Source: a virus
Direction: 5' to 3' (one strand)
DNA: 64,000 nucleotides
Virus record (IMG/VR): IMGVR_UViG_3300022745_000029
Span: 7,118 to 71,117 of that record
Position 1 is the first letter of the stretch; every line of letters begins with the position of its first letter. Shown piece after piece: positions 412 through 52,600 of this stretch. A program made the translations under genes and the position numbers. The notes under the pieces are model-generated. The model made no database searches. It was given only the letters and a program-made list of their open reading frames with translations, and had not been told where the DNA came from.

Positions 412-572
412 GCCTGGCGCTCCTGGGCGGCGCTGGTGAAGTGCTGCTCGGCAGCGGCGTCACGCTGGCGCTGGTTGTAGTCGTCGGCCCAGCGGTCGAC
501 CTGGTCGTTGACGTTGTCGGGGTCGTAGCCTTCCTCACGGAGGCGCTGCCGGATGGCGGCTTCATTGCTCAT
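408..572 (-). CDS. hypothetical protein (54 aa)
   Basis: Manual translation MSNEAAIRQRLREEGYDPDNV...QA*; start element upstream, ATGA overlap downstream. Confidence 0.7.
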   Translation of the reverse strand: MSNEAAIRQRLREEGYDPDNVNDQVDRWADDYNQRQRDAAAEQHFTSAAQERQA

Positions 573-605
573 GGTTGGACTCCAAGGTTGTGCCTTTCGG
601 CGGGG

Positions 606-797
606 TTAGGCTGGCCGGTTACGGTCGACCCACGCGAGCACCTCTCGTACAGTCTTGTGCGACCAGTCGGGATACTCGAAGTTGGGGATGAGCGAGTTGA
701 TCGCGTCGGCGAACATCTCGTCATCGTCGTAGAGGTCGGAGGTCTTCTCGCTGGGCATGAAGCGCTGCAGGTACTTGTAGGCGCGGTAGGGGCTCAT
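606..797 (-). CDS. hypothetical protein
   Basis: MSPYRAYKYLQRF... with AAGGAG RBS; 3' part of the 606..1052 ORF. Confidence 0.65.
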   Translation of the reverse strand: MSPYRAYKYLQRFMPSEKTSDLYDDDEMFADAINSLIPNFEYPDWSHKTVREVLAWVDRNRPA

Positions 798-1003
798 GTG
801 GACTCCTTGAGTTGGACTGCGGGTTGCCAAGGGTTGCGGGGAGAAAACCCGTGCATTCTCAGCATGTCTGGAACGCTCGGGCTGCTGCAGAACGGAGGGG
901 TATCCGGGCGCCCGCCCATCGTTCCACCGACCAGCTTGTGGCCGGTGGCGTCGTCGTGCAGGTTGTAGACGTGAAAGCGGGTGTTGTTGGTTTTTTCGGT
1001 CAT
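794..1003 (-). CDS. hypothetical protein
   Basis: 69 aa ORF with ATGA overlaps at both ends. Confidence 0.5.
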   Translation of the reverse strand: MTEKTNNTRFHVYNLHDDATGHKLVGGTMGGRPDTPPFCSSPSVPDMLRMHGFSPRNPWQPAVQLKEST

Positions 1004-1326
1004 GACAGCAGCTCCTCCGGAACGTCAACTTCTTCCCCGAGTTCGGAGACAACGTAGCAGCGCATGGCTGCTATCAGGGGTGTGGGGCCGTACCGCACGT
1101 GGTCGTCGCACTTCGCCGCCCACATGTCGAGCGCTGGCTGGTAGTACGTTTCTATCTTTTCCCGCTCAATGATCGGCCAGGCCAGCGCCGGGTCGGCGGA
1201 GTACGCGTATTCCCCCGCAAGGCTCAGGACAAAATCGTCGATGTCCTCGGACACCTCCTCCTCTAGCCTTGCCACCAGCCAGTCCAGCACGACGCCGGTG
1301 GCTTCGGATACTTTGATTTTGGTCAT
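1000..1326 (-). CDS. DUF2591/NinX-like phage protein
   Basis: Motifs LDWLVA, YSADPALAWPIIEREKI, GPTPLIAAMRCYV..ELGEEVDVPEEL typical of the family. Confidence 0.75.
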   Translation of the reverse strand: MTKIKVSEATGVVLDWLVARLEEEVSEDIDDFVLSLAGEYAYSADPALAWPIIEREKIETYYQPALDMWAAKCDDHVRYGPTPLIAAMRCYVVSELGEEVDVPEELLS

Positions 1327-1562
1327 TCAATGCCCCTTGTGTATTCGGTGTATGGGTTGCAGCCGTCGAGTTCTGCCTCCTCGTCGTATAGGCGCCCCCA
1401 GACCCAATCCCAGTAACCTTGGCGGGTGTACCCGTCCGCAACTTGGCACCGCCACTCCGCCGACGTGTACGCAGGGTGTTCGTCACCCACACTGGTCGGA
1501 TCGTATTTGGCCTGTAACTCGGCTGCGGAGAGCCGGAAGTCGCCTATGTTCCACTGCGTCAT
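1323..1562 (-). CDS. hypothetical protein
   Basis: ORF overlapping neighbours by start/stop; EHPAY..W...V..G.TR.GYWDWV motif. Confidence 0.7.
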   Translation of the reverse strand: MTQWNIGDFRLSAAELQAKYDPTSVGDEHPAYTSAEWRCQVADGYTRQGYWDWVWGRLYDEEAELDGCNPYTEYTRGIE

Positions 1563-1738
1563 CAAGTTCTCCTCATGAGTTCCAACGTACGGACCCGACG
1601 CAGCTCAAGCTGGCAGTCGGTGTGGTACTGGAACAGGTTGGTGTAGTAGGCGGCGGGGTTGCCCGCCCGGTCTTTCTTGGCGCGCTCCGCTGCAGAGGGC
1701 ACGAGCACAATCTCGCGGTTGCAGTGTTTGCACTTCAT
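1562..1738 (-). CDS. small CxxC (zinc-binding) protein
   Basis: MKCKHC...HTDC; GGAG RBS upstream; 3' half of the 1562..1897 ORF. Confidence 0.65.
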   Translation of the reverse strand: MKCKHCNREIVLVPSAAERAKKDRAGNPAAYYTNLFQYHTDCQLELRRVRTLELMRRT

Positions 1739-1893
1739 GACTCGAACTCCAGAGTTATGGGTGTGTCGCTGCGTGCGATGACGTTGACGTAGATGGGCAG
1801 TCGATCGAGCGGGTCTGCCGACATGCTCAAGGAGTTCTTGCCAGTCGTAGTTGAAGGCTTCGTTGTCTGCGCTGTAACAGTATTCGACTGCCA

Positions 1894-2319
1894 TCACGCA
1901 CCTCCGTTCTTGGCGCGGAGGACGGCTTCAACAGCGTCTATCTGTGAGTCAAAAAGTCCGTGGTTAGCCCACAACACCGTTCTCTCCGCATCCGTCAACT
2001 CCACCCACCGCGCTGGCTTGGCATACCCGGCATCCACCACAGTGCGCCCGCGCTCTGCGGCACATGGCGGACATATAAGACAGCATTTGGTCGCTGTTCC
2101 TGCGGCACCGCCTTTCAGTGGGTAGTCTTCAATAATCGGGGTGCCAAGTGAACAGGGCTGACGCCACTCAGGCCAACACCTGTTAGGGTGCATGTCCAGC
2201 CACATTGCAGAGTGACACGGTTCTATCCAGTGATATTCCCAGCGCCCACCAAACCAGCGGCGATACCACTGAAAACGGCTAAGGGCGTGCTTAAAAAAGA
2301 AGCTCCGAAAGATGTTCAT
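1894..2319 (-). CDS. hypothetical mosaic accessory protein
   Basis: Start at GTGATG after GGCGGTG; C-terminus WVELTDAE...AVEAVLRAKN typical of shuffled phage accessory genes. Confidence 0.6.
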   Translation of the reverse strand: MNIFRSFFFKHALSRFQWYRRWFGGRWEYHWIEPCHSAMWLDMHPNRCWPEWRQPCSLGTPIIEDYPLKGGAAGTATKCCLICPPCAAERGRTVVDAGYAKPARWVELTDAERTVLWANHGLFDSQIDAVEAVLRAKNGGA

Positions 2320-3254
2320 CACGCACCGCCTTTCTTCGCCTCTGCCTCTGCTGCGATTCGCAAATTTTCCCAAAGCTTCCAAGTTTGAGAGCCAATTGCG
2401 TAGCTGTGCAGTCCACAGCTGACTGCGTGTTCTTCATTGCTAAGAAGCGCCTCTACCGCCTCCAGCAGCCGCGCATTCACCGGCTCTGGCTGTGCTGGCG
2501 TAGCGTCGTCAAGCAGCGCCTCGAATTGCTGATTGAGTCGCCTGAGCAGTGGCAGCGCTGCATCGTTCAAAAGTGCCAGCGCCTGATCCCTTGAAAAAGT
2601 GGGACGCTTGTCGGGCTGTGCTGGCGTGTGCGCGTCGTACCCCTTGCAATGCCCAGCGTAAAAGATGCGCCTGTTGACCGCGCTATCAAGCTGCGGACGT
2701 GCTTCAAAGTATTTGTCCGAGGCGGCATTGAAATGGCCCTCGCGTACTGCTAGATACTGCTCATGCGTAGGCTGTGCTGGCGCTACGGAAAAAATAAGGC
2801 CACGCGCCCACTTTGCACCCTCAATGTAGGCATGTATCTCGGTCGCCCACCATGTTGGATTAGCTGCCTTGGCATGCCTTTCAATTTCAGCGTCTGTTGA
2901 TAAGGAAGGTACGCCCGGCGCTGCCGTGCGCTCACCACGGTTGAAAAGCATCATGGCGAAATTGCCAACATCAACCGGGTCGCCCTTGGGGATGTGGGCG
3001 ACAAGCATGGATTGGAGGCGCTCCGTGGGGCAATCAACCTTGTCATCCCAACCGCAGTAGCCCTTTGCCCGTTGTGCAGCCATCTTGGCTTTCATGGCCT
3101 CTGCAAAAGCATCCACAGCGGCATCGTCGGGGTGTTGTGCTGGCGCTGCTGTGAGCGCTTCCAGTGCGTCGGCGGCTTCAAGCAAAAGTAAATGATCGGC
3201 GCTGGTGCCGTCGCCCAGACGCAGCCGTGCAATCAGGTCTTTGTGGTTAGTCAT
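2319..3254 (-). CDS. multi-module accessory protein (Ead/Ea22-like mosaic)
   Basis: MTNHKDLIARLR start; HPDDAAVDAFAEAMKAKM..GW..GDPVDVGNFAMML module; PAQP linkers. Confidence 0.7.
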   Translation of the reverse strand: MTNHKDLIARLRLGDGTSADHLLLLEAADALEALTAAPAQHPDDAAVDAFAEAMKAKMAAQRAKGYCGWDDKVDCPTERLQSMLVAHIPKGDPVDVGNFAMMLFNRGERTAAPGVPSLSTDAEIERHAKAANPTWWATEIHAYIEGAKWARGLIFSVAPAQPTHEQYLAVREGHFNAASDKYFEARPQLDSAVNRRIFYAGHCKGYDAHTPAQPDKRPTFSRDQALALLNDAALPLLRRLNQQFEALLDDATPAQPEPVNARLLEAVEALLSNEEHAVSCGLHSYAIGSQTWKLWENLRIAAEAEAKKGGA

Positions 3255-3450
3255 CAAGCATCTCCGAAGTAAACACGCCTTGCCAGTAAGCGGCACCCAT
3301 TGTTTCCACATGCGCCGCGTTGAGAACATCGTTGATTTTTTCTAGGCATCCTCGCAGTTTTATCGTCGGGCCATTCCTGCCATGCAAAGACTCAATGTCT
3401 TTCAGAGCGATTTCAGCCGAAACGATCAACGGTAGTTTTGGTGAAGTCAT
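3247..3450 (-). CDS. hypothetical protein
   Basis: MTSPKLPLIV... with AGGA RBS, overlaps next start. Confidence 0.55.
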   Translation of the reverse strand: MTSPKLPLIVSAEIALKDIESLHGRNGPTIKLRGCLEKINDVLNAAHVETMGAAYWQGVFTSEMLDD

Positions 3451-3571
3451 ATCAGTTCCTAAAACAAGCCACAATAAAAAGCAGGCACAGCACCGCCAGC
3501 CCGATGCCGAATACAAGCCCGAATGCGCATCCGAAAAGCGCGCAGCCGCGCTATCAGGTCTTTGAGGTCAG

Positions 3572-3751
3572 TCATTCAATCTCCTCCAAGAGAAAAACGG
3601 CAAACCAATCCTGCGCGTCCGAGAGTGTTTCTCGCTTTCGAGCAATGGTGTCCTCGCGGCCCCCAAACCCCAAACTGCGCTCCGCTTCTGCAATACGGTC
3701 TTGATGCTCTTTAATGCGTTCCATTGCCCTGAGAAGTTGCCCGTATGTCAT
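3572..3751 (-). CDS. hypothetical protein (59 aa)
   Basis: Manual translation MTYGQLLRAMERIKEHQDRIAEAE...EIE*; ATGA overlaps at both ends. Confidence 0.55.
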   Translation of the reverse strand: MTYGQLLRAMERIKEHQDRIAEAERSLGFGGREDTIARKRETLSDAQDWFAVFLLEEIE

Positions 3752-4209
3752 GCTTGTCCTTTCAGTGCGGCCTCGATGGCGCGGGCGAACTCGTAGTCGC
3801 CACCTGCACGACCTGTGTTGTATCGCTGCGCAATTTGCTCAATTTGCGCATCCGTCAGGCTTGCGGCTGGGTGGGTGTAGAGCTTGACTCTTGTGTTCTT
3901 TCCGTTAAGAAAATCTCCGGGGTTATTTCCCGAGTAAAGCAACACTTCCCGACACCAGTGTTTCCCGTTTTCCGCCGGCAAGAGATGATTTTTGTGCACT
4001 TCCGCCACCGGCTCCCCCTCCGCCAGCACCGATGCGCGGCCTGCGTCGTAGGCTGTGCGCATTGCCTTGCGTGTGTTTTCTGGCGAAATCGTTGCGCAAT
4101 GTGGCTCGTAGTTTTCTGACAGACTTCTGTACTCTGAGCCTTGAGGGCCGTTTATCAGAGCCGTTGGGGACGCTTCCGGCAGCGGCAGCTTGTCTGCTGG
4201 GTGTGTCAT
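3748..4209 (-). CDS. hypothetical mosaic accessory protein
   Basis: MTHPADKLPLP..., EPVA..., KLYTHPAASLTDAQI...FARAIEAAL module; GGAGG RBS. Confidence 0.65.
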   Translation of the reverse strand: MTHPADKLPLPEASPTALINGPQGSEYRSLSENYEPHCATISPENTRKAMRTAYDAGRASVLAEGEPVAEVHKNHLLPAENGKHWCREVLLYSGNNPGDFLNGKNTRVKLYTHPAASLTDAQIEQIAQRYNTGRAGGDYEFARAIEAALKGQA

Positions 4210-4373
4210 TTCGCCCTCCAATCCACCGAGGGCCGCGAGCGGTGCAGAACCCACTTGTGGCCAAGGTTGCGCACGGCTTTGACCCAGGCGCGCTGGTTGC
4301 GACGATTGACCTCGCGCGGAACGAGGTCGGAACAGAAGTGGCGGCGCACGCGGCGCAGGAGTGTGGTGTTCAT
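4206..4373 (-). CDS. conserved small basic phage protein (55 aa)
   Basis: Manual translation MNTTLLRRVRRHF...NRRNQRAWVKAVRNLGHKWVL; GGAGG RBS; ATGA overlaps. Confidence 0.7.
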   Translation of the reverse strand: MNTTLLRRVRRHFCSDLVPREVNRRNQRAWVKAVRNLGHKWVLHRSRPSVDWRAK

Positions 4374-5551
4374 GCTGGCACCTCCGGCACGGTCAGGCCG
4401 ACCTCCACACGAATGTCCACACGGATGGCGTCGATCTCTTCCTTCTCGCTGGCGCGGTCACGCGCCAGGCACTTGAGCACCTCGATGACCTGGTCGGCGC
4501 GGTTGGCGCCGGGGATGCTCTCCGGGCGCCACGGCGTGTTCTCGCCGATCCAATCGAGCACGCGGTCGAGGCCGTCGGGGGCCTTGTCAATCACGCTGTC
4601 GCCCTCGGTGAGCTGGACAGTGACTGCCTCGTTTTCGGCGCACGGCGCGTCGCCGATCTCCTCAATCGCGTCGTAAGGAGACTCGTGCCACTTGTGGGGA
4701 GAGTCTGTGCCGTCCGCACGCAGGGAGTGAGCACCGGTGTAGTCGCCCAAGCCCCGGGTCCAGTACACGTGCTCAGGGTAGGACAGGTTGGCCCCCATCT
4801 TTAAGCACTCAACCGTCTGCCCGTTGCGCAGGCGGTAGGCCTTGCCGACCTGCATGCGCAGGGGCTTGGGTGCCGGGGTTGGGGCGGCTTCGCTGTCTGT
4901 GGCGTTGTCGCTGACGCTGACGTTGTCGGGGTCCTCCTTCTGCAGACGCTCGACGAGGTCAAACGGGTGGTCAACGCCCTCCGCCGCCCAGCGGCCTGAC
5001 GCGGTAATGTACCGCCGAACGCCCCCCGACGCCCTGAAGGCGTAGGGTCCGATTTCGTCCTCATCGAACTCCACACACTCGACAACGGCGCCGTCACGGC
5101 GGCGGTAGATGCCGCCGACTTCCATGATGAAGGCGGGTGAGGTTTCCGCCACAGGCTCCTCCGGCTTGGCCACGACCTCCTGCAGGATGCTGTGGCCATT
5201 CGTGTGGCTGTACCCATAGCAACAAACACCACTCGCCGTGTACCAGAAGCCGTTGGACAGGAGAAAGTCGCCGTAACCGTCTGGCCCGTCCGGCGCCGTC
5301 ACCACGTCGCCGACGAACGTCATGTAGGTGCCGCCCTCGCGCAGGGTCAGGACTTCATGTACGAGGCTCGGGCCGTTCAGCGGGCCGGTGTCCCCGTGAC
5401 AGACACCGTGGTCGTCATAGGTGTACCTGCCCCCCGCCCACGTGTGGTCTCCAGAGCGCGAGTCACTCGACGTGTGCGGCTTGACCTGCACTTGGTCACC
5501 GTCGCGGGAAAGGTAGGTCGCGCCTTCGCGCAATTGCAGTTTGCTGCTCAT
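4370..5551 (-). CDS. protein with four tandem repeats of an uncharacterised domain
   Basis: Repeats begin LQLREGATYLSRDG / LTLREGGTYMTFVG / IMEVGGIYRRRDG / LRMQVGKAYRLRNG; start element at 5549-5587. Confidence 0.75.
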   Translation of the reverse strand: MSSKLQLREGATYLSRDGDQVQVKPHTSSDSRSGDHTWAGGRYTYDDHGVCHGDTGPLNGPSLVHEVLTLREGGTYMTFVGDVVTAPDGPDGYGDFLLSNGFWYTASGVCCYGYSHTNGHSILQEVVAKPEEPVAETSPAFIMEVGGIYRRRDGAVVECVEFDEDEIGPYAFRASGGVRRYITASGRWAAEGVDHPFDLVERLQKEDPDNVSVSDNATDSEAAPTPAPKPLRMQVGKAYRLRNGQTVECLKMGANLSYPEHVYWTRGLGDYTGAHSLRADGTDSPHKWHESPYDAIEEIGDAPCAENEAVTVQLTEGDSVIDKAPDGLDRVLDWIGENTPWRPESIPGANRADQVIEVLKCLARDRASEKEEIDAIRVDIRVEVGLTVPEVPA

Positions 5552-5692
5552 AAAGTTGGACTCCAAGGTTGCGGCCCAAGGTGGGCCAAATGCCGGTGTG
5601 TCACCAGCGAGGCGAATCTTCACACGAAGATATTACAAATTGGCGACTCTTAAACGGAATTAAGGACTTTTAAGGTTTCTTACTGCAGGTGT

Positions 5693-5935
5693 TCAGGCTG
5701 TACTCAGCTTGTCATGGCAAGCGCCCCACGTGTGGGTGTCCCCGTGCCTGACAAGCGTGGAGCCGTCCGCGAACTCCATGCGGGTCAGACACTCCGCCGT
5801 CTGACCCAGCGTGTCGTTCAGGTCTTCGTACTCCACTGCCTTGGCGTAGAACGAGGCCCCGATGACCCTGGCCATCTGCTCGGTCAAACTCGCTGCGCCG
5901 TTGATGCGATCTGCGTGAACTTGTGCTGTGCTCAC
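5693..5935 (-). CDS. hypothetical protein
   Basis: 80 aa ORF with GAGGGG RBS; FADGSTL motif. Confidence 0.6.
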   Translation of the reverse strand: MSTAQVHADRINGAASLTEQMARVIGASFYAKAVEYEDLNDTLGQTAECLTRMEFADGSTLVRHGDTHTWGACHDKLSTA

Positions 5936-5938
5936 GGC

Positions 5939-6100
5939 TCAGTACCCCTCGAACATGCCAAGCGTGATGAAGTGCGCGAATTCGCGCCCCAAGTCGTAGG
6001 CCTCGATCAAGCCGTAATCGAAATAGGCCCGCGTGTAGTCGCTGCGGAATTCAGCGAAACCGGTCAGGAAGGCGCAGATGCGCTGGATTTCGTAGAACAT
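5939..6100 (-). CDS. conserved small phage protein (53 aa)
   Basis: Manual translation MFYEIQRICAFLTGFAEFRSDYT...EAYDLGREFAH; AAGGAG RBS. Confidence 0.7.
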   Translation of the reverse strand: MFYEIQRICAFLTGFAEFRSDYTRAYFDYGLIEAYDLGREFAHFITLGMFEGY

Positions 6101-6163
6101 GTCAAGTCTCCTTACAGGTTGTAGGTCTTGCGGAATTGCTCGATGGTTTTCGCCTCGGCCATG

Positions 6164-6457
6164 TCAGGGCTCCACGCCGCCAAGCCTGGCGGCGCGCGCC
6201 TTCAGCTCGCACAGCTCTTCGTCGAGCCTGGCGATGACGCGGCAGGCATCGGAAAGCTCATCTTCGAGGCTACCCACACACCCCAGAAGGTTCAGCACCA
6301 CAAGGGTGAGCACCGGCGCCAGTTCGCCTGGGTGAAGGTGGAGCCCTTCCAGGTACGGCCGCACCTCCTCCATCGACCCCGTCCGTAGGGTGTCAGGGTC
6401 CGCGAACCCGAATTCCGTCCACCCGCTGAACCACTCCACTGGCGGATACGCGCTCAC
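6164..6457 (-). CDS. hypothetical protein
   Basis: 97 aa ORF, GTGA overlap with upstream gene, coiled-coil C-terminus. Confidence 0.6.
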   Translation of the reverse strand: MSAYPPVEWFSGWTEFGFADPDTLRTGSMEEVRPYLEGLHLHPGELAPVLTLVVLNLLGCVGSLEDELSDACRVIARLDEELCELKARAARLGGVEP

Positions 6458-6942
6458 TTCACACCGCCTTCCGCGCCACAGTCCATCGCGTCGTCATCCC
6501 ACTCGCTGGCCAACTTCTTGATCGTGCTGTCGTAGCCCGAGGCGAACGCCTCCAGCACGGGCAGGAGGAAGTCGCCGGCGTGCTTGATCGACAGCTCGGC
6601 GATCAGGGCCTTGGCGGTGATGCCGTAGCGGCGGTACAGGCTCGGGACGATGGCGGCAAATGGGGCGTACTCGCCGCGCAGCTCGCGCAGGTCGGGGTCG
6701 ATGACTTCGAGGTGGGCGCGGACGGGCGTCCTGCCGTTCTGGCCAGGCTGCCCCAGTTCCAGATCGAGCTCGACGATGTTCCCATTGGCCATGCGGAATT
6801 CGAGTTCGACGACGCGCCGGGGCTTGATCTGTGCGGCGGAGTTGAAGAGCTCAAGGATTGAGAAGTGCGCGGTGGTCTCCACCGGCGTTGACGTTGTCGG
6901 GGCGCGCACAGAGACGAGCACACCGTGCAAGGGTGATTCCAT
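6454..6942 (-). CDS. hypothetical protein
   Basis: MESPLHGV... directly after start element 6940-6979. Confidence 0.7.
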   Translation of the reverse strand: MESPLHGVLVSVRAPTTSTPVETTAHFSILELFNSAAQIKPRRVVELEFRMANGNIVELDLELGQPGQNGRTPVRAHLEVIDPDLRELRGEYAPFAAIVPSLYRRYGITAKALIAELSIKHAGDFLLPVLEAFASGYDSTIKKLASEWDDDAMDCGAEGGVK

Positions 6943-6979
6943 GTTGGACTCCAAAGTTGTGGGGCAAGGTGCCCCGGGG

Positions 6980-7459: not shown

Positions 7460-7673
7460 GTTGGACTCCAAAGTGGTGGGCAAGGTGCAGCAAAGCGCTG
7501 CGGAAGTGGCTCAAGTGAGCCGGGAACGGGAGTGTAGACGTTGTCGGGGCGGTGCCGTTGACGTTGTCGGGGCAAGCTCGAAAGTGCATAAAAGCCTTGC
7601 GGGACAAGCACTTACAGAATTGGGCACCCCTAGACCTACGTTTTACAGGGGAAACGAGGTAAGTGCCCTTTTC

Positions 7674-7712
7674 TTTCAAAAGTCATTTCACATTATGAAA
7701 TCACTTTTGAAA
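7674..7712. promoter_or_regulatory. AT-rich 17-bp inverted repeat with core TTTCACATTATGAAA (second core copy at 8295-8309)
   Basis: TTTCAAAAGTCATTTCA-CATTA-TGAAATCACTTTTGAAA, one mismatch. Confidence 0.6.
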
Positions 7713-7954
7713 AAATACCTGAATCATTAAAAAAAAAACAGTCTTCATTTTTGAACCCTCTAAATCTTCAAGCACTTGTCAGGCAACAGAAATTTGGCAC
7801 TTGACTAAAAAGGGTCGAGTACTACAAATTTCCAAGGGGTACTACTTTTTTGAGCAAGATTCTTGCTTTACAATCGTCATAAATAGTGCTCACTCACTTT
7901 AAAAATGATAGCAAAACACCGTTTCGGCAAGAATCGTGCCAGCTTGAGTAGGGC

Positions 7955-8122
7955 CTAAGTACCAATCTTCTCCAGGAAGCCCATGACAACGGCGCCGACG
8001 AGGCTCAGGCCGGCCACTTCGCCAAGCAGTCGAGCTTCTTGCTCGGTGCCAAATACCGCCGCCACCAGGCAGACAGCAGCTTGTACACCGAGGAAGCTGG
8101 TGAAGATGTAGGGCTTGAGCAT
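7955..8122 (-). CDS. small membrane protein
   Basis: MLKPYIFTSFLGVQAAVCLVAAVFG...; two hydrophobic segments; GGAGTTCAATC-ATG. Confidence 0.55.
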   Translation of the reverse strand: MLKPYIFTSFLGVQAAVCLVAAVFGTEQEARLLGEVAGLSLVGAVVMGFLEKIGT

Positions 8123-8753
8123 GATTGAACTCCGAAAATGGGCACAAAGCCTTGCACAGCTTGCCCGTTTAGCTATCAAAACGATAGCGGAATTGGTTTG
8201 GAAACGCGGCGGGGCGCTATTCATCAACGGAATAGCGGTGCCAGACCTGGGCCCGTTGTCCCCGACAACGTCAAATGCAGAGCAAATGTCAACATTCCAC
8301 ATTATGAAAAGTTGGACTCCAAAGATGTCTGACGCAAGCGGACAGGCCTTGACCCAGGCCCCGACAACGTCAATGTCCGGGCACACTGGGCACGTTGGAC
8401 TCCAAAGAGAGCTGACGCAAGCGGCCAGCCCCAGGCCCCGACAACGTCAAAGCGCCCGTAATTGCTGCGTTTTCAGCTATCGTTTCGATAGCAACATCAA
8501 CGAGCAGTGGGCAATGACGTTGTCGGGGCCCCTGCCAGTGGCAGTGGCAGTGACGTTGTCGGGGCGTCAGCCCACCGCCTCGAAATGGCGCTTGATCCCA
8601 CAGGCCCCGTCCCACGGGTTTGCCGCCCGGTAGGGCACAGGAGGGTTACCGCCTTGACTGCGGCGCCCAGTGCCCCCGACAACGGCACGGACCAGGGGTT
8701 TGCGCATGGTGCCGGCGGGTACTCGAACTACGACGCCGCTCGGGGTTTTACGT

Positions 8754-9002: not shown

Positions 9003-9005
9003 GGT

Positions 9006-9209: not shown

Positions 9210-9244
9210 GTTGGACTCCAAAGGGATGCCCCAAGGTGGGCGGG

Positions 9245-9535: not shown

Positions 9536-9539
9536 GCTG

Positions 9540-10545
9540 GAATTCGAATCAAATCGGTTGCAACATACAACTCATGGAAACGGTCCGTCGGAAAAGTCGG
9601 GCATCAGAACCATGGTTCCTCCTGCAATGACTGGGGCTCTGACCATCAGAGCCCCCGTTATTGCACCCCCGACAACGTCAGAGCATTTCTGCACGACCGC
9701 TGGTCGTTGACGTTGTCGGGGTGCTCAGGTTTTAAACCTCTGCGGAAAGCTCCGCAGACAGGCCGGCCGTGCCGGGATTGCATAGAACGCGCCCTATGCG
9801 AGGGCGTTGGTAATTACGGTTGCCGGCCGGTTTTTGTCTACAGCTTTTGACGCCGCCTATCCTCAACGGGTGTACCTATCCCGGTCATGGCCGGTTCACA
9901 CGGGCGCCGCAGGTTGGCCCAGGGTTCAAGCCTAGGACTTACGTTTACGGCGCACGGCGTTGGATACTAGACACGCCACCCTTGTTTCTTTCGAGCGAGG
10001 GCGCTGCTACGGGTTGTCTCCCGTAGGTTTCCCGTCTTTCAGGGGACCCCCGGCTCCCGCGTTTATGGGGCAATGCTATCGCGCGCTGCTGAGCTGATCG
10101 TTCCCCGTCAACGAACTTGTCCACGCCACTGACCTGTCAATCTGCGTTGTTCAGGCGTAGCATGGGGTTCGCTGACGTTGTCGGGGCCGGGCTTTGCGGT
10201 CGGACATTGGTTCAGGCGAAATTAGAGGGATGCGACAACGGGTAGCCCATGGCGGGCCCACAGTAGTTGTCGTTGTCGGGTTTTTATGGGACGGCGCACA
10301 CCTTACCCGGCGAACCCGTCACGGGTTGCCACGATGAAAATGGGCTAAGCCGACTGCGGCAATTGACCAGGCAAAGCTCCGCCTTACTTGCGAACCCGTG
10401 GGTTGCAAGTGAAAGCGGAAAGAACCTAGGCCAGTCCGTGCAACCCGCTAGGGGTTGCGCGTCGGGTTAGTGGGCGATGCCACTAGATAGAGCACGGTGG
10501 ATGCTCTATCTGGTGGCATCCGCTTTTGTGCGGATGCTGCAGAGG
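9540..10545 (+). ncRNA. candidate ~1 kb structured non-coding RNA or ssDNA structure
   Basis: No convincing ORF; more than ten consecutive hairpins; G-T pairs form on the + strand. Confidence 0.35.
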
Positions 10546-10546
10546 G

Positions 10547-11423: not shown

Positions 11424-11897
11424 ATGAAAAAAGACATTCTGAAAGCCGCCGTAGAGCAAGTCATATCCGGCGCCAAGTCTTCGTACCAAGCCAGCAAGGA
11501 CACGGGGATACCCCCGGCGACCCTATCCCGAGCTGTGCGGCTCCACCCCGACTACGAAAAGGCCAAGGCTGACGGCCGGCTGAGGTCGATGCGCTCCGAT
11601 CTGGTACCGCTGGACCCCGTAAAACTGCGTCAAATGCCGGAGTTGCAGGCCATCGTGGCGGAGTCCCTGAGCTACAACGAGGCTGCCCGGCGGTTCGGGA
11701 GCGAGGCCTCCAAGTGGCGCCGGTACACGATGGTCGCCTACCCCGACTACGCCAAGGCCCGCGAGAAGCCCAAGCGCCAGGACCCCGCCCAACAGGCCCT
11801 TGAAGACCGCCTGCGCGCCCTGGAAGAGGAGCTCCTTGCCCTCAAAATTCGCTCCGAAGAGGCCAAAAAAGCCCAAAATTCGAGCGAAAATCAGTGA
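11424..11897 (+). CDS. tandem helix-turn-helix DNA-binding protein (candidate repressor)
   Basis: HTH1 SSYQASKDTGIPPATLSRAV (Psq-like), HTH2 LSYNEAARRFGSEASKWRRY, C-terminal coiled coil. Confidence 0.7.
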   Translation: MKKDILKAAVEQVISGAKSSYQASKDTGIPPATLSRAVRLHPDYEKAKADGRLRSMRSDLVPLDPVKLRQMPELQAIVAESLSYNEAARRFGSEASKWRRYTMVAYPDYAKAREKPKRQDPAQQALEDRLRALEEELLALKIRSEEAKKAQNSSENQ

Positions 11898-35269: not shown

Positions 35270-35620
35270 GTGCCGCCCGACAACGTCATCAACGCCGACC
35301 CGAGCATCACCAAGCTGGTGGCCGCCGTCATGGGGTCCTTCATCTCCCTCAAGTTCATGAAGGGCACCTGGTACGAGCGCCTGATGCTGTTCGTTGGCGG
35401 GGCGTTCCTCAGCTACAACGCCACGTCCCCGCTGGCGCACTGGCTCAACTTCCAGGAAGGCGAGGGCCTGATCGGGTTCTCCGTAGGCCTGCTGGGCATG
35501 GCGCTTGCCGAGAAGTTGTACGAGGCCGTGCAGGCTACGGACGCGAAGCAGGTCTCCAAGGACCTCTGGTCTGCAGTGAAGAAGCGTATCGGGGTCGACT
35601 CAGATGCAAACGGTCAATGA
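35270..35620 (+). CDS. putative holin
   Basis: Three hydrophobic segments, charged C-terminus, heads lysis cluster. Confidence 0.65.
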   Translation: MPPDNVINADPSITKLVAAVMGSFISLKFMKGTWYERLMLFVGGAFLSYNATSPLAHWLNFQEGEGLIGFSVGLLGMALAEKLYEAVQATDAKQVSKDLWSAVKKRIGVDSDANGQ

Positions 35621-41157: not shown

Positions 41158-41283
41158 GGTTCTGACGTTGTCGGGGCCGAAGCCCTGAGGGGCCTCGTTT
41201 GGCCCTCGTTTGGGCCTCAAAAGGTGTTGAATCAGTAGCATGCTACCGTTGCAACGGACCAGAAAGTCCGTGTATGCTGGTGC

Positions 41284-46477: not shown

Positions 46478-47351
46478 AGGCCTCTTTCAATGTCGGGTAC
46501 AGGTCACGCAGTGCCTGCGAATCCTCGAAAAGTTCGCGGAACTGCAGCCACCCACGGAAGTTGCGGCTGGGGGTGTAGTTCGTGATCAGTGGCGTGGCCT
46601 GGTGCTCGATGGGGCTCGCGTGCAGGGGTTCGCTCCCCACCAGACGCATGAACAGGTCAAGGTCCTTCTGGATGCTCGGGTTCTCGCCGTCGTGGGTGAG
46701 GTAGGACACCCGAGCACAGCGCGCGGCGCTGCAGGCGATCAGCACCCAGGCGGGCACTTTGGCGGCCTGCGAGTCGATGCGCTCCTGCAGGCTCACGTAG
46801 GGTAGGTGCCACGCGAAGATGTCGTCAAGTTCCCCGGTGCGCAGGCTCGGCGTGGACGCATCCATGGCTTTACGCATTGCCTTAGCCAGCAGCTGGAACT
46901 CGGGCAATGCTGCGCTGTGGTCGCGCAGGGCGAAGAAGCCGTCCCACTCGGTGGCAGTGACGATGGTCCGCATCCACTGGAACGGCTCGAGCAGGCGGTT
47001 CGGAATAGACTTGTGAACCCCCAAGCTCATCAGGGCCTCGGCGAAGTAAGCCGCGTGCCCCGCCGCCCGCTGCCAGACCAGGCGGGCTTCCTCCCGCTTA
47101 CTCGACCCGAGTTCCTCGCCCCCCTGCATCCCCGGCTGGTTTGTAGGCCACCGGCAGGGCTCTGCGGGGTTTTCCTCGACCTGGGCCAGCATCTTGCGCA
47201 CCGGGATGGCCCGGGAAGACGCTGAGTTCCTTGACAGCACCCTGTGGGTCAGCAGCTCACCATGAAAGTACCTGTGATACTGGAGCTCCAGAGTCACAAC
47301 ACGGGCCCCGGCGGGGGACACCGAATCTTCTATTACGTTGGCTGAAATCAT
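46470..47351 (-). CDS. thyX: flavin-dependent thymidylate synthase
   Basis: ELLTHRVLSRNSASSRAIP, HKSIPNRLLEPF, SAARCARVSY, HASPIEHQA. Confidence 0.9.
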   Translation of the reverse strand: MISANVIEDSVSPAGARVVTLELQYHRYFHGELLTHRVLSRNSASSRAIPVRKMLAQVEENPAEPCRWPTNQPGMQGGEELGSSKREEARLVWQRAAGHAAYFAEALMSLGVHKSIPNRLLEPFQWMRTIVTATEWDGFFALRDHSAALPEFQLLAKAMRKAMDASTPSLRTGELDDIFAWHLPYVSLQERIDSQAAKVPAWVLIACSAARCARVSYLTHDGENPSIQKDLDLFMRLVGSEPLHASPIEHQATPLITNYTPSRNFRGWLQFRELFEDSQALRDLYPTLKEAYA

Positions 47352-47596
47352 TTCATACTCCTGGCATATCGGGCCACGACCAGCAGCCCTTCGTTTTGTT
47401 TTCCCTCAGCGGGAGGATTCGCAGGTTCCCCTCCCAGTGAAGGCCGCAAACTAGGTGGACCCTGCCGGGCCCGAGGCCCTTTAAGGGCACTATGTGATCC
47501 ACACTCATGGTGGTGCCTGTACGCAGGCTGATCGGCGTGCCCGTTTTTGCAGTCCTTCCCCGTAAAAACGAAATTTGCACGCTTCGCCCGGGTCAC
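47348..47596 (-). pseudogene. degraded HNH endonuclease
   Basis: VDHIVPLKG...VCGLHWEGNLRILPLRENKTKG in one frame, FTGKDCKNGH N-terminal motif in another; middle missing. Confidence 0.7.
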
Positions 47597-48681
47597 TGCT
47601 TCTCTCCTACGAGGCCTTGGATGACCTTCTGTTCTTCGGGGTTGAGAAATTCCATGAGCAGGCCGATGACGTCGACCTTGCGGATGTCTTCGACGGTGTC
47701 TGCCAGACCGTCCATGCCTTCGGCGGACTCGACCTTGACGGCATTGGTCACGACGAAGGAGCGGCTGCGCTGGCGGAATTTGGAAATCGCCTTGACGACG
47801 TTGGCGGACTCGGACAGGCCGGCGTCGCCGATGACACGGATGAACCCGCGGCCGTCTTCGGTCACGTCGTCCAGCTCACGCCAGTCGACCTCGGCGAACC
47901 ACCCGTCGCCTTCGTCGTCGGGCGTCCAGGTCGGGATCAAGCTCGGCTCTTCGTCGCTCAGGAGCAGCGCGTACTTCTTGCCGTCGGCCTGCCCGTCGCC
48001 GTGGGCAAGGCAGTCGCTCACCGAGGTGGGGAACTGGTTGCCGACGATCAGCACCCGCCCACCCAGCGCGCGGCGCCCTTGGTGCTCGTGGCCCAGCACC
48101 ATCGTGATGTCGCGGTCACGGAAGCCCTTGGCGACTTCACGGGTCAGTTCGAGTGAGTGGTCTTGCTGGCCAGCGAATGGGTTCGAAAAATTACAGTGCA
48201 GCAGCAAATACTTGGTGCCGTCGGGCACCCGGCCCAGCTCATGCTCGAAGATTTCCTGGTTGGGCATGTGGGGGATAACGTAGACCCCGCCGTCCAGCGC
48301 CGTCGGCTTCGACACAAGCCGGAACCGCGCATGCTTCATCTCCAGCAGTGCGCCGATGAAGGCCACGGTGCCCAGCTTGGTGCTGTCCTTGCTCAGGTCA
48401 TGGTTACCCAGAGCCCAGACAACGTCAATGTGGGGGAACTCGGTCATGAACTCGTCAGTGATCGAGTAGATCGCCAGCGCCTGACTCAGCGCAATGCTGT
48501 AGGTGTCGGCCAAGTCGCCGTTGAAGATGATGCGCTGGGCGCCGTTTTCAGGCGCCAGGCGCAGCAGGCGGCGGTGCTGCTGCAGGGCGTATTCCCGCAG
48601 GTCGGCGGCGCTGGCCAGCGTGGTGCCGCCGGTGCGCTCCACGCCGAGGTGGTGGTCATTCAGTACGAGGGTTGGGGTCAT
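47593..48681 (-). CDS. sbcD: SbcD/Mre11-like metallophosphoesterase nuclease
   Basis: DHHLG, GDLAD, GNHD, LGHEH motifs; near SbcC. Confidence 0.88.
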   Translation of the reverse strand: MTPTLVLNDHHLGVERTGGTTLASAADLREYALQQHRRLLRLAPENGAQRIIFNGDLADTYSIALSQALAIYSITDEFMTEFPHIDVVWALGNHDLSKDSTKLGTVAFIGALLEMKHARFRLVSKPTALDGGVYVIPHMPNQEIFEHELGRVPDGTKYLLLHCNFSNPFAGQQDHSLELTREVAKGFRDRDITMVLGHEHQGRRALGGRVLIVGNQFPTSVSDCLAHGDGQADGKKYALLLSDEEPSLIPTWTPDDEGDGWFAEVDWRELDDVTEDGRGFIRVIGDAGLSESANVVKAISKFRQRSRSFVVTNAVKVESAEGMDGLADTVEDIRKVDVIGLLMEFLNPEEQKVIQGLVGEKQ

Positions 48682-48964
48682 CTTTGGTCTCTTCGTTGGT
48701 ACGGGCCCAGGCGCCGCCGCGGGGCGGGTCGCTGACGGGCTGCAGGGCCTCAGCGCGGTGGCGCTTGGCGGTGGCGCTCAGCTCGGCACGCCGAGCGACG
48801 CGGTCGGCTTCTGCGGCTTGCTCGAGTAGAGAGCGCGGCTTCTGGCGGGTGCTGTGGCACTGGGCGCACTGGTTGTTGTGGCCCATGCGACCGGGTACAA
48901 GCACCTTGCGGAAGCCTTCGGCGGGCTTGTGCCGGCGACAGTAGTGGCAATACTTCTGGGGCAT
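48656..48964 (-). CDS. zinc-finger hypothetical protein
   Basis: CHYC...CAQC. Confidence 0.6.
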   Translation of the reverse strand: MPQKYCHYCRRHKPAEGFRKVLVPGRMGHNNQCAQCHSTRQKPRSLLEQAAEADRVARRAELSATAKRHRAEALQPVSDPPRGGAWARTNEETKDDPNPRTE

Positions 48965-48965
48965 G

Positions 48966-49445
48966 TCAGCACCCGAACGCGGGCAGGGCGGCGGCGAGGG
49001 CGTCCCGGGGGGCCTCGTAGAGAGGCTCCTGCGACAGGTTCCATGAACCCTTGTCTCCTGTACGGCTGAGGTACACAGGCGTCACGACACGCCAGCGGCC
49101 CAGGGTGGAGTGGTAAACCAGCACCGCGCAGAGCCCACCCGCGTTCGCCCGCTTGCGCAGAGCTGGCAGCTGAGGGACCTTGTCGCGGACAAGGCGGTAT
49201 TCGTGCTCCGTTTCCTTCACCTCGACGAGGCCGTAGTAGCGCTCGTACGAGGGGTTCAGCAGGGCGTAGTACTCGAAGTCGGCGGCCGCGGCCTTGATCG
49301 TGCGGCCGGCTGCCTTCGTGTCCACCAGGCGGTTGAACTCCCGGTGCACAGGGTCTTCGGCGACCCACGCCTCCAGCACCTTCTGGACGGCCTTTTCGGC
49401 GTCCTTCCCCCTGTCAGCGAACTTGTTGCTCTTCTTGAACGGCAT
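48966..49445 (-). CDS. RecU-like Holliday junction resolvase
   Basis: RGKDAE, ADFE, VEVKET PD-(D/E)XK pattern. Confidence 0.7.
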   Translation of the reverse strand: MPFKKSNKFADRGKDAEKAVQKVLEAWVAEDPVHREFNRLVDTKAAGRTIKAAAADFEYYALLNPSYERYYGLVEVKETEHEYRLVRDKVPQLPALRKRANAGGLCAVLVYHSTLGRWRVVTPVYLSRTGDKGSWNLSQEPLYEAPRDALAAALPAFGC

Positions 49446-49692
49446 AAAAGTCTTTCTGCTTTTTTGGCCTGAATGGTTTGCGTTCGAAGGCCCCGGCCAG
49501 CGCATTGCTGTGGACCTTCCCCTTGGAGCACCCGCATCCACGGGTGTGCCCCGACTTGAGGTGGCCCTCGCGGACCCACTTCACCGTGCCGCATTCGCAG
49601 CGGCATTTCCACTTCGACAGCTTCGGGATGTACTCGCGCTCAATGAGCGTGAGTTTTCCAAGAACCTGCCCGGGGGCAAGTTCCTGGCTCAT
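49414..49692 (-). pseudogene. N-terminal fragment of homing endonuclease
   Basis: GKLTLIE...WKCRCECG...LKSGHTRGCGC domain with no nuclease domain following. Confidence 0.65.
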
Positions 49693-52600
49693 GCGAGTGC
49701 CTCCTCGATGGCTGCGCTGATCTTCTCGGCGTCGAAGAAGTCGCCGCACTCGATCTGCTCCCCGAAGTTGCGGCCCAGCGAGATGCTGGACACGATCGGG
49801 ATGCGCATGCCGCCGTAGGGCTGCACCATGCACTCGTGCGCCTGGCGCATCACCTCCAGCGCGTCGTCGCGGTGGACCGAGAACACGACTTCGTCGTGGA
49901 TCGGGAAGTAGAAGCGGGCGTTGTACTTGCCGGAGAACAGCCCAAGCCGCCACATGGAGGCCAGCGCCAGCTTGGTCTGCTCGCCGCCGGAGCCCTGAAT
50001 CTTGAAGTTCGGACCCTGGCGGCCGGCCTTCGCGGCTTCCCACTTGTCGTCGGAGGACAAGGCTGCCTGCAGGTGGCGCCGCGCACCCATGAGGGTGGTG
50101 GCGTAGCCGCACGCCTCGACCTCGGCGCGAACCTTCTCCTTCCACGGCGTGATGCGCGGGAAGGCGACTTCCTTCGCGTCCAGGAACGCCTGCGCCACTT
50201 CCTCCTCGACGCGCATCGTCGAGGCGATCTTCGGCGCCATGGCGTCGTACTGGCTGGCGAAGTTCACCGTCTTGGCGTCGTCGCGCAGGGCCTTGGCCTT
50301 GGCCTTGACCGCCTTGTCGCTGGACTCACGCATCTGCTGGAACTCGTCGTACCCGACGGGGTGCCCCCAGATGTGAATGGCAGCGGCCACGGCCGTCAAG
50401 CTGTGGGCGTCCTTCAGGTCCTCGCCGACGTAACACGCGGTCAGGTTCTCGTCGCCGGACTGCTCCGCCATGAGGCGCAGCTCCTGCCCCGAGAAGTCCA
50501 TGGAGACCACGACAGCGTCCTTGCAGTGGGGCAGGACAACCTGGCGGAACTCCACACCCTCGCCGCGCTTGGGCATCTGCTGCGCGTTGGGGGCGCTGGA
50601 GCTGTAGCGCCGGGTCACCGCCTCCGACTGGTTCAAGGCGGGGTGGATCAGGCCGTCGCGCCAGTGCGGGAACACCTTGTAGGTCGAGTAGAACAAGCTG
50701 CGGCGGGTGTTCACCGTCTTGATGGTCTGGAAGGCCTTGAGGACAGCCTTCTTCTCGTCGTCGAGGTGCGTGTCCCGAGCCAGCGAGTTCTCCACTGCGT
50801 CGTCATCGGTGGAGGCCTTGCTGATCCACAGCGCGCGGTCTTCGTCGGTGACGTCGACCTGCTTGCCGTCCTTTAGCGCGCGCAGCTTCTTCCACGCTAC
50901 CCGGTAGGCCGGGTCCTCGCGCTGGGCGGCGGTGAGCTTGTTGAACAGACGCGGCTGAATCCCGATCACGTTGTAGAACAGGTTCTGCATCTGCTTCGGA
51001 GAGCCGAAGTTGATCTTGGGCTCGCCGGTGAAGCGTTCCCGCACGTAGTCGTTCAGGGCCTTCGTGTCGTTGGTCTGCAGGATGTGCAGGAGCAGCGGCT
51101 GGCGCCCATTCAGGTAGGTCTCGACGTCCTGCAGCACCGCGTCGATCTTGCGCTTGCGGGTGCTGAAGCCCTCGTCGTCGTCCACCAGGATGGCCAGGGC
51201 CGTCTTGATGGCAGAGGCGTCGATCGTGTCGAAGGTGGGGCAGCTGGTGCCTTCCCACCCGTTCTTGACGAGGAAGGCGCGCAGCGTGGCCCAGGCCTCG
51301 CTGTAGCGCTTCTCGTCCTTCTGCTCCATCTCGCGGACCTTCTGCTGCGAGATCTTCACGCCCTGCACGTAGGCAAGGGAGGTGAGATACTCGGGCAGGG
51401 TCTCGACCTCGAGGTACACGTGCCACGTGCGCTCGATCTCCATGACCAGCTGGTAGTAGGTGTGCAGGGAGAACGTGCAGATCGTGTCGTCGGCGCCGTA
51501 GTCGAACACCTCGCTCGCGGTCAGCTCGTTCATGCGGTACTGGCGGCGCTCCCAGGGCTCGGTCACGGCGCGCTCCAGCAGCTTTCCGTTGCCCATGCTC
51601 ACCGTGACCCCGCCGGTCTCGTCGTTCACCGTGCGGACCTCGACCTGCTCATACACAGCGGGCTTCACCTCAGCGTCCCAGGTCTTGGTGACCCGACCGC
51701 CGGTGAGCGAGCCCACCGGGCCATCGCGGGAGGTGGTCTCCTCGTAGGTCTGCTGCTCGTAGCCCAGATGCAGCTTGCTGCGCTGCTTCAGGCCCTTGGG
51801 CAGGTTCTCGTCCACGTACGACGCGCCGATCTTGGTGTCGATCGCGTTGGGCAGGAAGCCGTGCCAGCCGTTGTCCTTCCACTTGTCGCCCCACGTGCGG
51901 TAGAGCACGGAGAACTCGAAGGAGCGGTTCTGCACCAGGACGGTGACGTTGTCGGGGATCAGCTCCACCATCGCGCGGCACTGGTCCACGCTGATGTTGG
52001 CCACGTCGGACTCTTCCTTGTGGTCCACAGTCATGTAGACCGTGTGCTGGCCGTTGTCGCCGAAGGTCAGGCCCATGCCGGTCAGTTCATGCCCGAGCAC
52101 GTCCACCTCGAAGCTGCCCTTGTCCTTCACGGCGTTGATGCCGGCGATCCACTCTTCGGAGGCTTCGGTGTCTGAGGTTTCAATGTCCAGCGCCACGTAG
52201 GGCGAGTCCTTCAGGGCGTCGCTCACGCGGCTGAAGGCCCGCTCGTAGTTGCCGGCGTGGACAAGGGTCTTGGTGCCGTAGAAGCGGCGCAGGTCGTCCA
52301 CCCGCAGCACCGGCGAGAGCTCGTCCCACTGCTTGACCATGCCCGGGGTGACCTCCAGCGGGCGGCTCACCGTGTTGACGTCGTCGGTGTGCAGGCTGGC
52401 CACGCGCCAGGACGTCGTGACCATGCCCTTGTTATCGATCAGAAACTGCAGCGACTTCATGTCCGCCACGTCTTCACGCAGGCGGTCGAGCTGGCCGTTG
52501 ACGATCAGGTCTTCCAGGGCCTGCAGGCCGTCCACGCCCCACTTCGAGACGAGCTCGACGAACTTGGCATCACCGAAGCCCTTGGCGCCGGGGATCTTGT

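Follow-up and report, generated by a model that had tools for sequence, protein, structure and literature searches.

A conserved asymmetric 14-base word in divergent temperate phages of Comamonadaceae, tentatively read as docking sites for an early-arm regulator

A short asymmetric DNA word, TGACGTTGTCGGGG, is repeated throughout a 64,000-nucleotide stretch of a viral genome (the window, bases 7118-71117 of the 71,117-bp IMG/VR virus record IMGVR_UViG_3300022745_000029, which is linear and 91% complete by CheckV). The same word recurs with an unchanged core in divergent relatives of this virus, where it is concentrated in the control region and in the early genes and is under selection as DNA. 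Our tentative reading is that the copies would be docking sites for a conserved phage protein damping transcription of the early arm, and that this protein would be separate from the immunity switch. An earlier analysis of the window from its letters alone (the sequence-only reading) had proposed an immunity system of the stoperator type, a proposal that is borne out in part: the word is phage-specific, asymmetric, present in many copies and abundant in the control region, but polarity, a gp71-type repressor, co-variation with a repressor and intergenic placement do not support it.

Fourteen exact copies of the word were found in the window, at the positions reported by the sequence-only reading, against 0.01 expected, and none of 100 dinucleotide-preserving shuffles reached this number. 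With up to two mismatches the count rose to 27 sites (0.79 expected), the additional ones being five with one mismatch and eight with two, a total of 13 near-copies where about seven had been announced; a fifteenth exact copy lies in the same record, beyond the window. Twelve of the 27 sites fall within 7536-10281, on both strands, which agrees with the earlier description of this control region as densely occupied in both orientations.

Alignment of 127 core sites from eight motif-bearing genomes gave the consensus YGACGTTGTCGGGG, with a G at position -2 in 119 sites and an A at position -1 in 80, and beyond position -3 and beyond the G-run the flanks show only a three-base coding periodicity. 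The motif is a compact asymmetric site of 13-14 bp without conserved flanks. A phage-specific promoter of the MotA-box or phage sigma type was considered and rejected: no second element was found at a fixed distance in the 127 aligned sites, indicating that the word is not a two-element promoter, and a consensus scan for a promoter motif found no more sites than in shuffles.

Relatives of the virus were gathered from IMG/VR, first through the 14-mer and later through the primase and the terminase; G000 designates the record holding the window, and G001-G015 and the L-numbers designate related contigs. The 11-base core CGTTGTCGGGG is unchanged in eight distinct related viral records, with 10-30 copies in each (G000, 18; G001, 30; G002, 11; G004, 16; G007, 14; G008, 15; G009, 10; G011, 13). 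These eight genomes, with 127 core copies, were pooled for the counts given below. G003, a 48-kb fragment with 10 copies, duplicates G011 and was left out, and G009 was analysed to 80 of its 86 kb, which contain all of its 10 core sites. The reversed word, taken as control, is absent from every family record, and the core is the commonest 10-mer in six of the ten family genomes examined. The relatives align to G000 over 8-24 kb only, with 68-69% nucleotide identity, and protein identity across the family is about 50-70% overall (48-61% for PolA and 57-70% for the portal).

One-base variants of the core were detected in G012 and in contig L191 only. In G012, whose PolA is 57% identical and as near as that of the others, the variant CGTTGTTGGGG, a C-to-T change, has three exact copies, two of them in a small cluster of five sites (up to one mismatch) upstream of the terminase gene; L191 also carries this variant three times, and contig L253 carries ACGTTGTATGG three times. 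L204, a 56-kb IMG/VR provirus record with a terminase of 46% identity, has instead a 14-bp perfect palindrome, ACTAGACGTCTAGT, in 15 copies within 8 kb (849-7974), and those copies whose flanks were read lie about 12 nt upstream of the ribosome-binding site (RBS) of an early gene read leftward; the repeat system here is another one, of intercistronic type. The variant words of G012, L191 and L253 and the other word of L204 imply that specificity can drift, with copy numbers from 3 to 30. No such motif was found in G013, G015 and the G010 fragment: the frequent CGTCGTCGCGG of G013 has neither conserved flanks nor a cluster and was judged to be codon-driven, and the frequent 10-mers of G010 belong to one 72-bp tandem repeat. 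A comparable word is also lacking in PMBT3, a lytic phage whose genome has the same two-arm architecture and in which the commonest 11-mer reaches only six copies. A literature search with two core strings returned matches that were unrelated to phage, as far as their titles and abstracts tell.

The host was also searched for the word. In a 6.6-Mb Variovorax genome there are 16 sites with up to one mismatch, of which six are on a prophage contig, three lie within 0.9 kb on another contig and seven are scattered singles, and the reversed control word occurs once. A prophage stretch of V. paradoxus (L143) carries six core copies in 22.9 kb, against none in shuffles. A host repeat or a Chi-type word of the host was therefore rejected, given that the host chromosome is not enriched and that nine of its 16 sites are on two contigs, one with a prophage; this lack of enrichment makes the word private to the phages.

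The genome is that of a temperate, siphophage-like phage with two arms, whose boundaries, like those of the clusters of sites, were set by hand from strand maps; gene calls were GC3-based, so that start codons are approximate. The late arm reads rightward from about 11.4 to 40.2 kb and encodes a lambda gpA-type large terminase, an S49 protease, a tail tube protein and a tape measure protein. The early arm, 36 kb long, reads leftward from 7.46 kb around the record back to 42.4 kb, and includes genes for a family A DNA polymerase, a primase, an SNF2 helicase, SbcCD-like, ThyX-like and MazG-like proteins, an exonuclease, an ATP-dependent ligase and a C5 methyltransferase.

Over these arms the word is very unevenly distributed. 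In the eight pooled genomes 50 of the 127 core copies are in the control-region clusters (2.96 per kb), 69 in the early arms (0.20 per kb) and only eight in the late arms (0.03 per kb). Arm length would put 56% of the 77 dispersed copies in the early arms, where 69 of them are found (p=1.4e-10). Copies within genes are also skewed to the 5' part of genes, with 48%, 41% and 11% in the successive gene thirds (n=46; Kolmogorov-Smirnov p=0.003). The preference for the early arm and for the 5' part of genes fits a multi-site regulator of early expression.

The clusters themselves have a recurrent layout. In G000, G001 and G004 the sites bracket an AT-rich block of 300-400 bp with their G-runs pointing inward, and in the same three genomes there are sites between this block and the first early gene. 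A triple of sites on one strand followed by sites on the other is seen in G000, G001, G002 and G004, despite non-homologous neighbouring genes, and in these four genomes the clustered repeats adjoin the AT-rich region; the arrangement is looser in G007-G009 and G011, where 0.5-1.5 kb separate the cluster from AT-rich bins. A candidate palindromic operator and promoter-like hexamers are found within the AT-rich block.

The dispersed copies are polar, with CCCCGACAACG on the sense strand of the arm in 71 of 77 cases (64 of 69 in the early arms and seven of eight in the late arms). The polarity noticed in the window holds in the pooled genomes, but it is no stronger than what codon usage gives (8.1:1). 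According to a codon-usage model built from 127,571 codons of the family, coding accommodates the sense orientation of CCCCGACAACG better than the reverse one, by a factor of 8.1 for the core and of 10.1 for the 14-mer, since the reverse would bring in a TGA stop or else a rare codon, GTT or TTG, and the observed polarity of 92% compares with 89% expected for sites selected regardless of orientation. Clearly intergenic dispersed copies were too few for a polarity test free of coding constraint. In the window, the sequence-only reading had listed only the copies at 43270 and 44577 as breaking the polarity; to these must be added the one-mismatch copy at 48414-48427 (-), located in the SbcD-like gene 47593-48681 on the - strand.

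The abundance of the word inside open reading frames (ORFs) is far above chance in both orientations, with 55 sense copies against 0.60 expected and 17 reverse copies against 0.075. Fifteen of the 55 sense-strand copies lie in the two disfavoured frames that do not encode PDN, where 6.4% were expected (p=1.3e-6). The tripeptide PDN is itself over-represented 4.2-fold in the family (59 against 14.1 expected), and 51 of these 59 tripeptides are encoded as CCCGACAAC and 37 carry the full core; the neighbouring tripeptides PEN, ADN and PDQ are not enriched. The motif is under selection at the DNA level and has been written into proteins, and the earlier suggestion of a DNA-level signal is supported by both the disfavoured-frame copies and the PDN excess. 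The statement that the intragenic copies of the window read CCCCGACAACG on the sense strand, in a PDN(V) or a PTT(S) frame, also holds, for five copies that are all on the + strand within - strand genes. The exact copies 509..522 (ORF ending at 565) and 6889..6902 (ORF 6454-7062) read PTTS, whereas the exact copies 4918..4931 (ORF 4370-5623) and 51944..51957 (the family A DNA polymerase gene, 49689-53288) read PDNV; the fifth, 59545..59558 in the primase gene, has an exact core with two prefix mismatches and reads PDND.

The explanation that we tentatively prefer is that one sequence-specific DNA-binding protein of this phage family docks on YGACGTTGTCGGGG. The sequences show the motif itself, its conservation, its distribution and its selection as DNA; that a protein binds it, how this acts on transcription and what kind of protein it would be are predictions. 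About a dozen sites on both strands, arranged around the AT-rich promoter/terminator block where the leftward early operon begins and including two in the operon's leader, would form an operator array. Further copies, about one per 5 kb in the early replication and nucleotide-metabolism genes and mostly in their first two thirds, would be roadblocks, as stoperators work, and the bound protein would damp or block transcription of the early arm. The immunity switch would be a separate layer, consisting of the variable protein encoded at 11424, which is CI/LexA-like with tandem helix-turn-helix (HTH) modules, and of lineage-specific operators. The invariance of the motif in all these phages makes a conserved early-gene shut-off or silencing factor a likelier binder than a repressor that determines immunity specificity. 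The early-arm bias, the gene-5' bias, the two leader sites, the operator-bearing AT-rich block and the lack of the motif in the lytic relative all favour a regulator of early expression. With slightly more reserve, we suggest that at least eight divergent Comamonadaceae phages may share a second, family-wide silencing or shut-off network, independent of the CI/LexA switch, in which an operator array and intragenic roadblocks would serve the 36-kb early arm.

Several observations weigh against this reading. The polarity is not above the codon-usage null, which leaves orientation dependence, the hallmark of stoperators, unsupported. No binder was found: no small DNA-binding protein is kept in all motif-bearing genomes, and the conserved family proteins without function matched no DNA-binding family in Pfam or PHROGs. 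The dispersed copies are mostly inside ORFs (of at least 100 aa, at varied positions) and not in gene gaps, and the set showing the 5' skew includes orthologous repeats, namely the exonuclease start in five genomes and one primase position in three; when orthologous repeats were collapsed by hand, the gene thirds held 16, 19 and 4 copies. In addition, the leftward genes to the right of the AT-rich block would call for sites oriented opposite to the - strand triple found there, a consensus scan detected no sigma-70-like promoter overlapping a site, and the sites that bracket the AT-rich block would fit a replication origin as well.

An origin of replication is the main rival, and we consider it rather unlikely. 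In this case the clustered sites would bind an initiator, such as the 980-aa primase or primase-helicase, the AT-rich block would be the unwinding element and the dispersed copies would be secondary boxes. The inward G-runs on both sides of the 300-400 bp AT-rich block in G000, G001 and G004 are what such boxes would look like, the invariant motif goes along with a conserved replication module (primase 34-59% and PolA 48-61% identical), and G012 keeps a small cluster of one-base variants with few dispersed copies, as expected if the cluster were essential. An origin does not predict, however, that the dispersed copies, which make up 77 of the 127, reach a density in the early arm about seven times that in the late arm and are skewed to the 5' parts of genes, and in G007-G009 and G011 the distance of 0.5-1.5 kb between AT-rich bins and cluster does not suit an unwinding element. 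The G010 fragment (56 kb) has the primase (44% identity) and other replication genes, yet only two core copies, both in conserved peptide motifs. The palindromic operator and the promoter-like hexamers of the AT-rich block also speak against an origin, and no initiator was found; the ORFs in and beside the cluster have no Pfam or PHROG match, and the primase gene is about 20 kb away around the circle.

The original proposal in its strict form, that is, a true stoperator immunity system, is in our view improbable. Here the tandem-HTH protein encoded at 11424..11897 (+) would bind the asymmetric 14-mer as a monomer, with one HTH per half-site, and silence the prophage. This 157-aa protein has an HTH_psq domain and belongs to a family with two tandem HTH modules of this kind, homologues of which are encoded at the same place in G001, G002, G007, G008 and G009, so that the gene sits between the cluster and the packaging genes in six of ten family records. 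The G007 homologue has a C-terminal Peptidase_S24 domain (Pfam, E=7e-19), an autocleavage domain, and those of G008 and G009 align with it through the S24 region, including the GDSM motif; the copy in the window is without the peptidase part. The S24 domain on relatives of the protein is the CI/LexA architecture and implies that a classical repressor exists in the family. The earlier remark that no CI/Cro pair is visible was therefore wrong in spirit, the 11424 protein being homologous to the N-terminal domains of Peptidase_S24 proteins (those of G007, G008 and G009) and palindromic operators being present. In favour of monomer binding, the part of the report on the TipsytheTRex repressor used here (PMC9283540) describes a two-domain monomer acting on an asymmetric site.

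The evidence against this proposal comes from the comparison of protein and word. A profile search found no homologue of the 11424 protein in G004, G011 and G003, which have 16, 13 and 10 core copies, respectively, and in the alignment of the family only six columns are invariant, of which none falls in a recognition helix; the 11-bp core, by contrast, does not differ between the motif-bearing genomes. The expected co-variation of the motif with this protein was thus not seen: the core is the same in eight genomes, and the protein is highly variable and missing from G004 and G011. An invariant core together with a variable or missing CI-like protein is not the behaviour expected of an immunity determinant. 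Furthermore, the intergenic regions beside the G007 and G008 homologues, read by eye, contain TTAGAC repeats and not the 14-mer, and L5 gp71 has no homologue in ten family genomes (tblastn, best E=1.2). The 11424 protein is probably the immunity repressor, as its domain relationships suggest, and is unlikely to bind the 14-mer.

A more conventional operator may be the 15-bp palindrome TTYCACAWTRTGRAA, present in the control regions of G000 (two copies) and G001 (three, at 49892, 50214 and 50269) and absent from the other genomes, which looks like a lineage-specific operator. In the window the first copy, TTTCACATTATGAAA at 7686..7700, is a candidate classical operator within the AT-rich block and is the same word as in G001, and the second, TTCCACATTATGAAA at 8295..8309, adjoins the 14-mer site at 8260. 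The AT-rich block of G004 has other palindromes, TTACAA..TTGTAA.

As to candidates for the binder that our preferred reading calls for, the ORFs in and beside the cluster have neither a Pfam or PHROG match nor homologues among the relatives. The family-conserved ORFs without assigned function include 12609-13067, 48656-48964 (zinc-ribbon-like, Cys4), 48966-49541, 56797-57630, 60766-61338 and 62717-63154. A conserved 277-aa protein, without match among cultured phage records, was set aside, as the ESM Atlas places it near Pam3_Gp34 and phiC31-gp3-like replication accessory proteins. Two other conserved proteins, one of 191 aa with the look of a PD-(D/E)xK nuclease and one of 102 aa with a Cys4 pattern (both by eye), were noted, and none of the three has a Pfam match.

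A signal for DNA ends or packaging has only a slim chance of being correct. The word would then be a set of cosB-like sites for the small terminase, a phage-private Chi-like end protector, or strand-specific nick sites sealed by the ligase. The cluster does lie 1-6 kb upstream of the gene for the lambda gpA-type large terminase, next to which is an HNH gene; the phage has a gene for an ATP-dependent ligase, and the motif changes strand between the arms. The sites, however, are found as far as 5.6 kb from the terminase gene and throughout the early arm, the lack of enrichment in the host genome excludes a host Chi site, and nicks at opposed cluster sites 27-80 nt apart would result in double-strand breaks. 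Many contigs of the relatives end 2-5 kb upstream of the terminase gene, but at least six of the 22 contig ends examined start inside tandem repeats of a repeat-protein gene, which suggests that assembly breaks there, and for this reason contig ends are not evidence for cos.

The least probable alternative is a signal in RNA, in which early mRNAs carrying CCCCGACAACGUCA would be the target of a phage RNA-binding protein or of control-region small RNAs with the complementary word, in analogy with the CI RNA immunity of P4: 64 of the 69 copies in the early arms indeed have the C-rich form on the sense strand, several genes have a copy overlapping their first codons and leftward reading of the - strand cluster copies would transcribe the complementary word, but the sense bias equals the codon-usage null, the opposite orientation is far above chance (17 in-ORF copies against 0.075), no Rfam family was found in the window and the sequence around the word is not conserved.

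The individual sites of the control region are arranged as follows. Two + strand sites, 7536..7549 (one mismatch) and 7559..7572 (exact), 23 nt apart, lie in the early-operon leader, with the start codon (7459) on one side and the AT-rich block on the other. The block itself (7640..7940) consists of 100-bp bins below 40-50% GC in a genome of 64% GC, with the G-runs of the flanking sites facing it, and a terminator-like hairpin at 7929-7917 (-) closes the upstream leftward unit. To its right are the three exact sites of the - strand triple, 8260..8273, 8359..8372 and 8436..8449, which have a repeat unit of about 80 nt and the first of which is part of the hairpin-capable CGTTGTC-GGG-GACAACG, followed by a + strand pair of exact sites with 36-nt spacing (8515..8528 and 8551..8564) and by a one-mismatch site with an exact core at 8674..8687 (-). 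Further on, the exact sites 9667..9680 (-) and 9708..9721 (+) form an inverted pair with a 27-nt spacer, beside the hairpin 9623-9665. The last two, both on the + strand, are the exact site 10173..10186, in a stretch without called ORF (9.72-10.54 kb), and the two-mismatch site TGTCGTTGTCGGGT at 10268..10281, which was found in the mismatch scan.

Outside the control region, besides the intragenic copies already described, a one-mismatch site lies at 61759..61772 (+) in the SNF2 helicase gene of the - strand. The sole good copy of the late arm is the one-mismatch site 35275..35288 (-), where the + strand ORF 35270-35620 begins; none of the three ORFs within 35270-36325 has a Pfam match, and the label of lysis-operon start given to this position was not confirmed. 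The exact site 41163..41176 (+) had been placed between attP and the int promoter, and it does lie 108 nt upstream of the tyrosine integrase gene 41284-42426 (Pfam Phage_integrase), on the same strand; attP was not located.

Other repeated elements are found in the same region. The leader CTTTGGAGTCCAAC on the - strand, followed by a start codon, is an RBS with its start and has four copies (7456-7478, 8307-8329, 8390-8412 and 9206-9228), two of which precede ORFs of only six codons whose stop is the TGA of the 14-mer; a similar leader occurs in G004, and G002 has a version of its own. The hairpins 9623-9665 and 10476-10520 have perfect arms of 20 nt and 19 nt, respectively, the second being followed by a T-run, and three small GGGTTGC-type hairpins occur at 10290-10460, all in or next to the ORF-less stretch, which is possibly a cos or terminator region. 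Within the ORF 10547-11155 (-), nine tandem 21-nt units (10543-10815) encode heptad-like peptide repeats, and relatives carry other tandem repeats at this place. Just upstream of the tandem-HTH gene, at 11310-11335, the element TGACGTATAG(G/C) is followed by a T-rich stretch; it is kept in three relatives (the window, G001 at about 52235 and L186 at about 40-60) and shares the start TGACGT with the 14-mer. In G002 (L131), a (GACGTT)x8 microsatellite at 2440-2499 leads directly into a copy of the 14-mer.

No cultured close relative was identified, the control region being without match by megablast and blastn against 50,697 phage records, and the best terminase and primase matches among cultured phages are 24-30% identical (the Vibrio SHOU24 group, Pseudomonas PMBT3 and UAntarctica). 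A related prophage is present in Variovorax paradoxus ISL-3 (primase 53% identical) and a related fragment in a Rhodoferax metagenome-assembled genome, which indicates that the hosts are Comamonadaceae. No tRNA was found in the window.

Among the other genes of the window, 53811-54338 (-) encodes the N-terminal domain of a dATP/dGTP diphosphohydrolase (Pfam dGTP_diPhyd_N, E=8.5e-22) and is near the genes for the MazG-like pyrophosphatase, the ThyX-like protein and the family A polymerase (accompanying ORFs 55432-56064, 46470-47351 and 49689-53288), a set that we take to be reminiscent of phages altering the nucleotide pool or the DNA bases; a PurZ-like gene was not searched for. Three free-standing nuclease genes were noted, an HNH/EndoVII-like one by the terminase genes (12006-12572, +), an HNH_3 one beside the integrase (40345-40995, -) and one with a weak GIY-YIG match (43864-44346, -). 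The end of the late arm before the integrase has genes for a GNAT acetyltransferase (39740-40198, +) and a glycine-rich-domain protein (38253-39314, +), which are possible lysogenic-conversion or accessory genes.

Among known systems, the one proposed here would work most like the stoperators and operators of Cluster A mycobacteriophages (L5 gp71, Bxb1 and the TipsytheTRex repressor; PMC9283540, PMC6550527), and the resemblance is a partial one. As far as the portions of these reports used here describe them, both have an asymmetric word of 13-14 bp in tens of copies in a temperate siphophage genome, a strand preference relative to transcription, copies at the early control region and a phage-specific word. 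In contrast to Cluster A, the family studied here has no gp71 homologue and has a separate CI/LexA-like repressor, its polarity is explained by codon usage and, on the same portions, its dispersed copies are mostly in ORFs and almost only in the early arm, and its core is invariant across far more divergent relatives and does not co-vary with the repressor. Three features that define the Cluster A stoperator family, namely a repressor of the gp71 type, sites placed between genes and a motif that co-varies with its repressor, were not found, and the system is therefore not a member of that family.

Stoperator-like repeats have also been reported in other phages, and the general idea is therefore not new. 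The T1-like phages Stevie, TLS and T1 have asymmetric 22-bp repeats whose function is unexplained in the passages used here and which were likened to stoperators by their authors (PMC4319613, PMC11447400). Like the word described here, these repeats are genome-wide, asymmetric and oriented with transcription in Gram-negative siphophages; according to the same passages they are AT-rich, predominantly intergenic and found in virulent phages, whereas our word is GC-rich, mostly intragenic outside the cluster and found in temperate phages. Nostoc cyanophages have asymmetric repeats described as "reminiscent of stoperators", with no function given in the part of the report considered (PMC4916379).

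For the alternatives too there are precedents. The early-arm and gene-5' bias and the operator-like palindromes in the AT-rich block distinguish our sites from initiator boxes, although the latter are likewise short asymmetric boxes on both strands by an AT-rich block, with extra copies elsewhere in the replicon; examples are the DnaA boxes outside oriC and the sites of the P4 alpha protein at ori and crr. The R sites of lambda cosB, bound by the small terminase gpNu1, are likewise asymmetric, occur repeatedly on both strands and precede a gpA-type terminase operon, but they are four and confined to cos, whereas here about 12 sites extend over 2.7 kb and dispersed copies occur besides.

To our knowledge, it is only in Cluster A mycobacteriophages that a function has been proven for one-way DNA words spread over a genome. 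The present case differs by the family-wide invariance of the word, by a word strong enough to have reshaped protein sequences and by the related prophage of a cultured host, V. paradoxus ISL-3, which makes experiments possible. It also indicates that transcription-linked polarity, the usual evidence for roadblocks, can arise from codon usage alone. If a binder were found, it would constitute a new regulator-site pair and would help to explain how a 36-kb early operon is kept quiet in large temperate phages.

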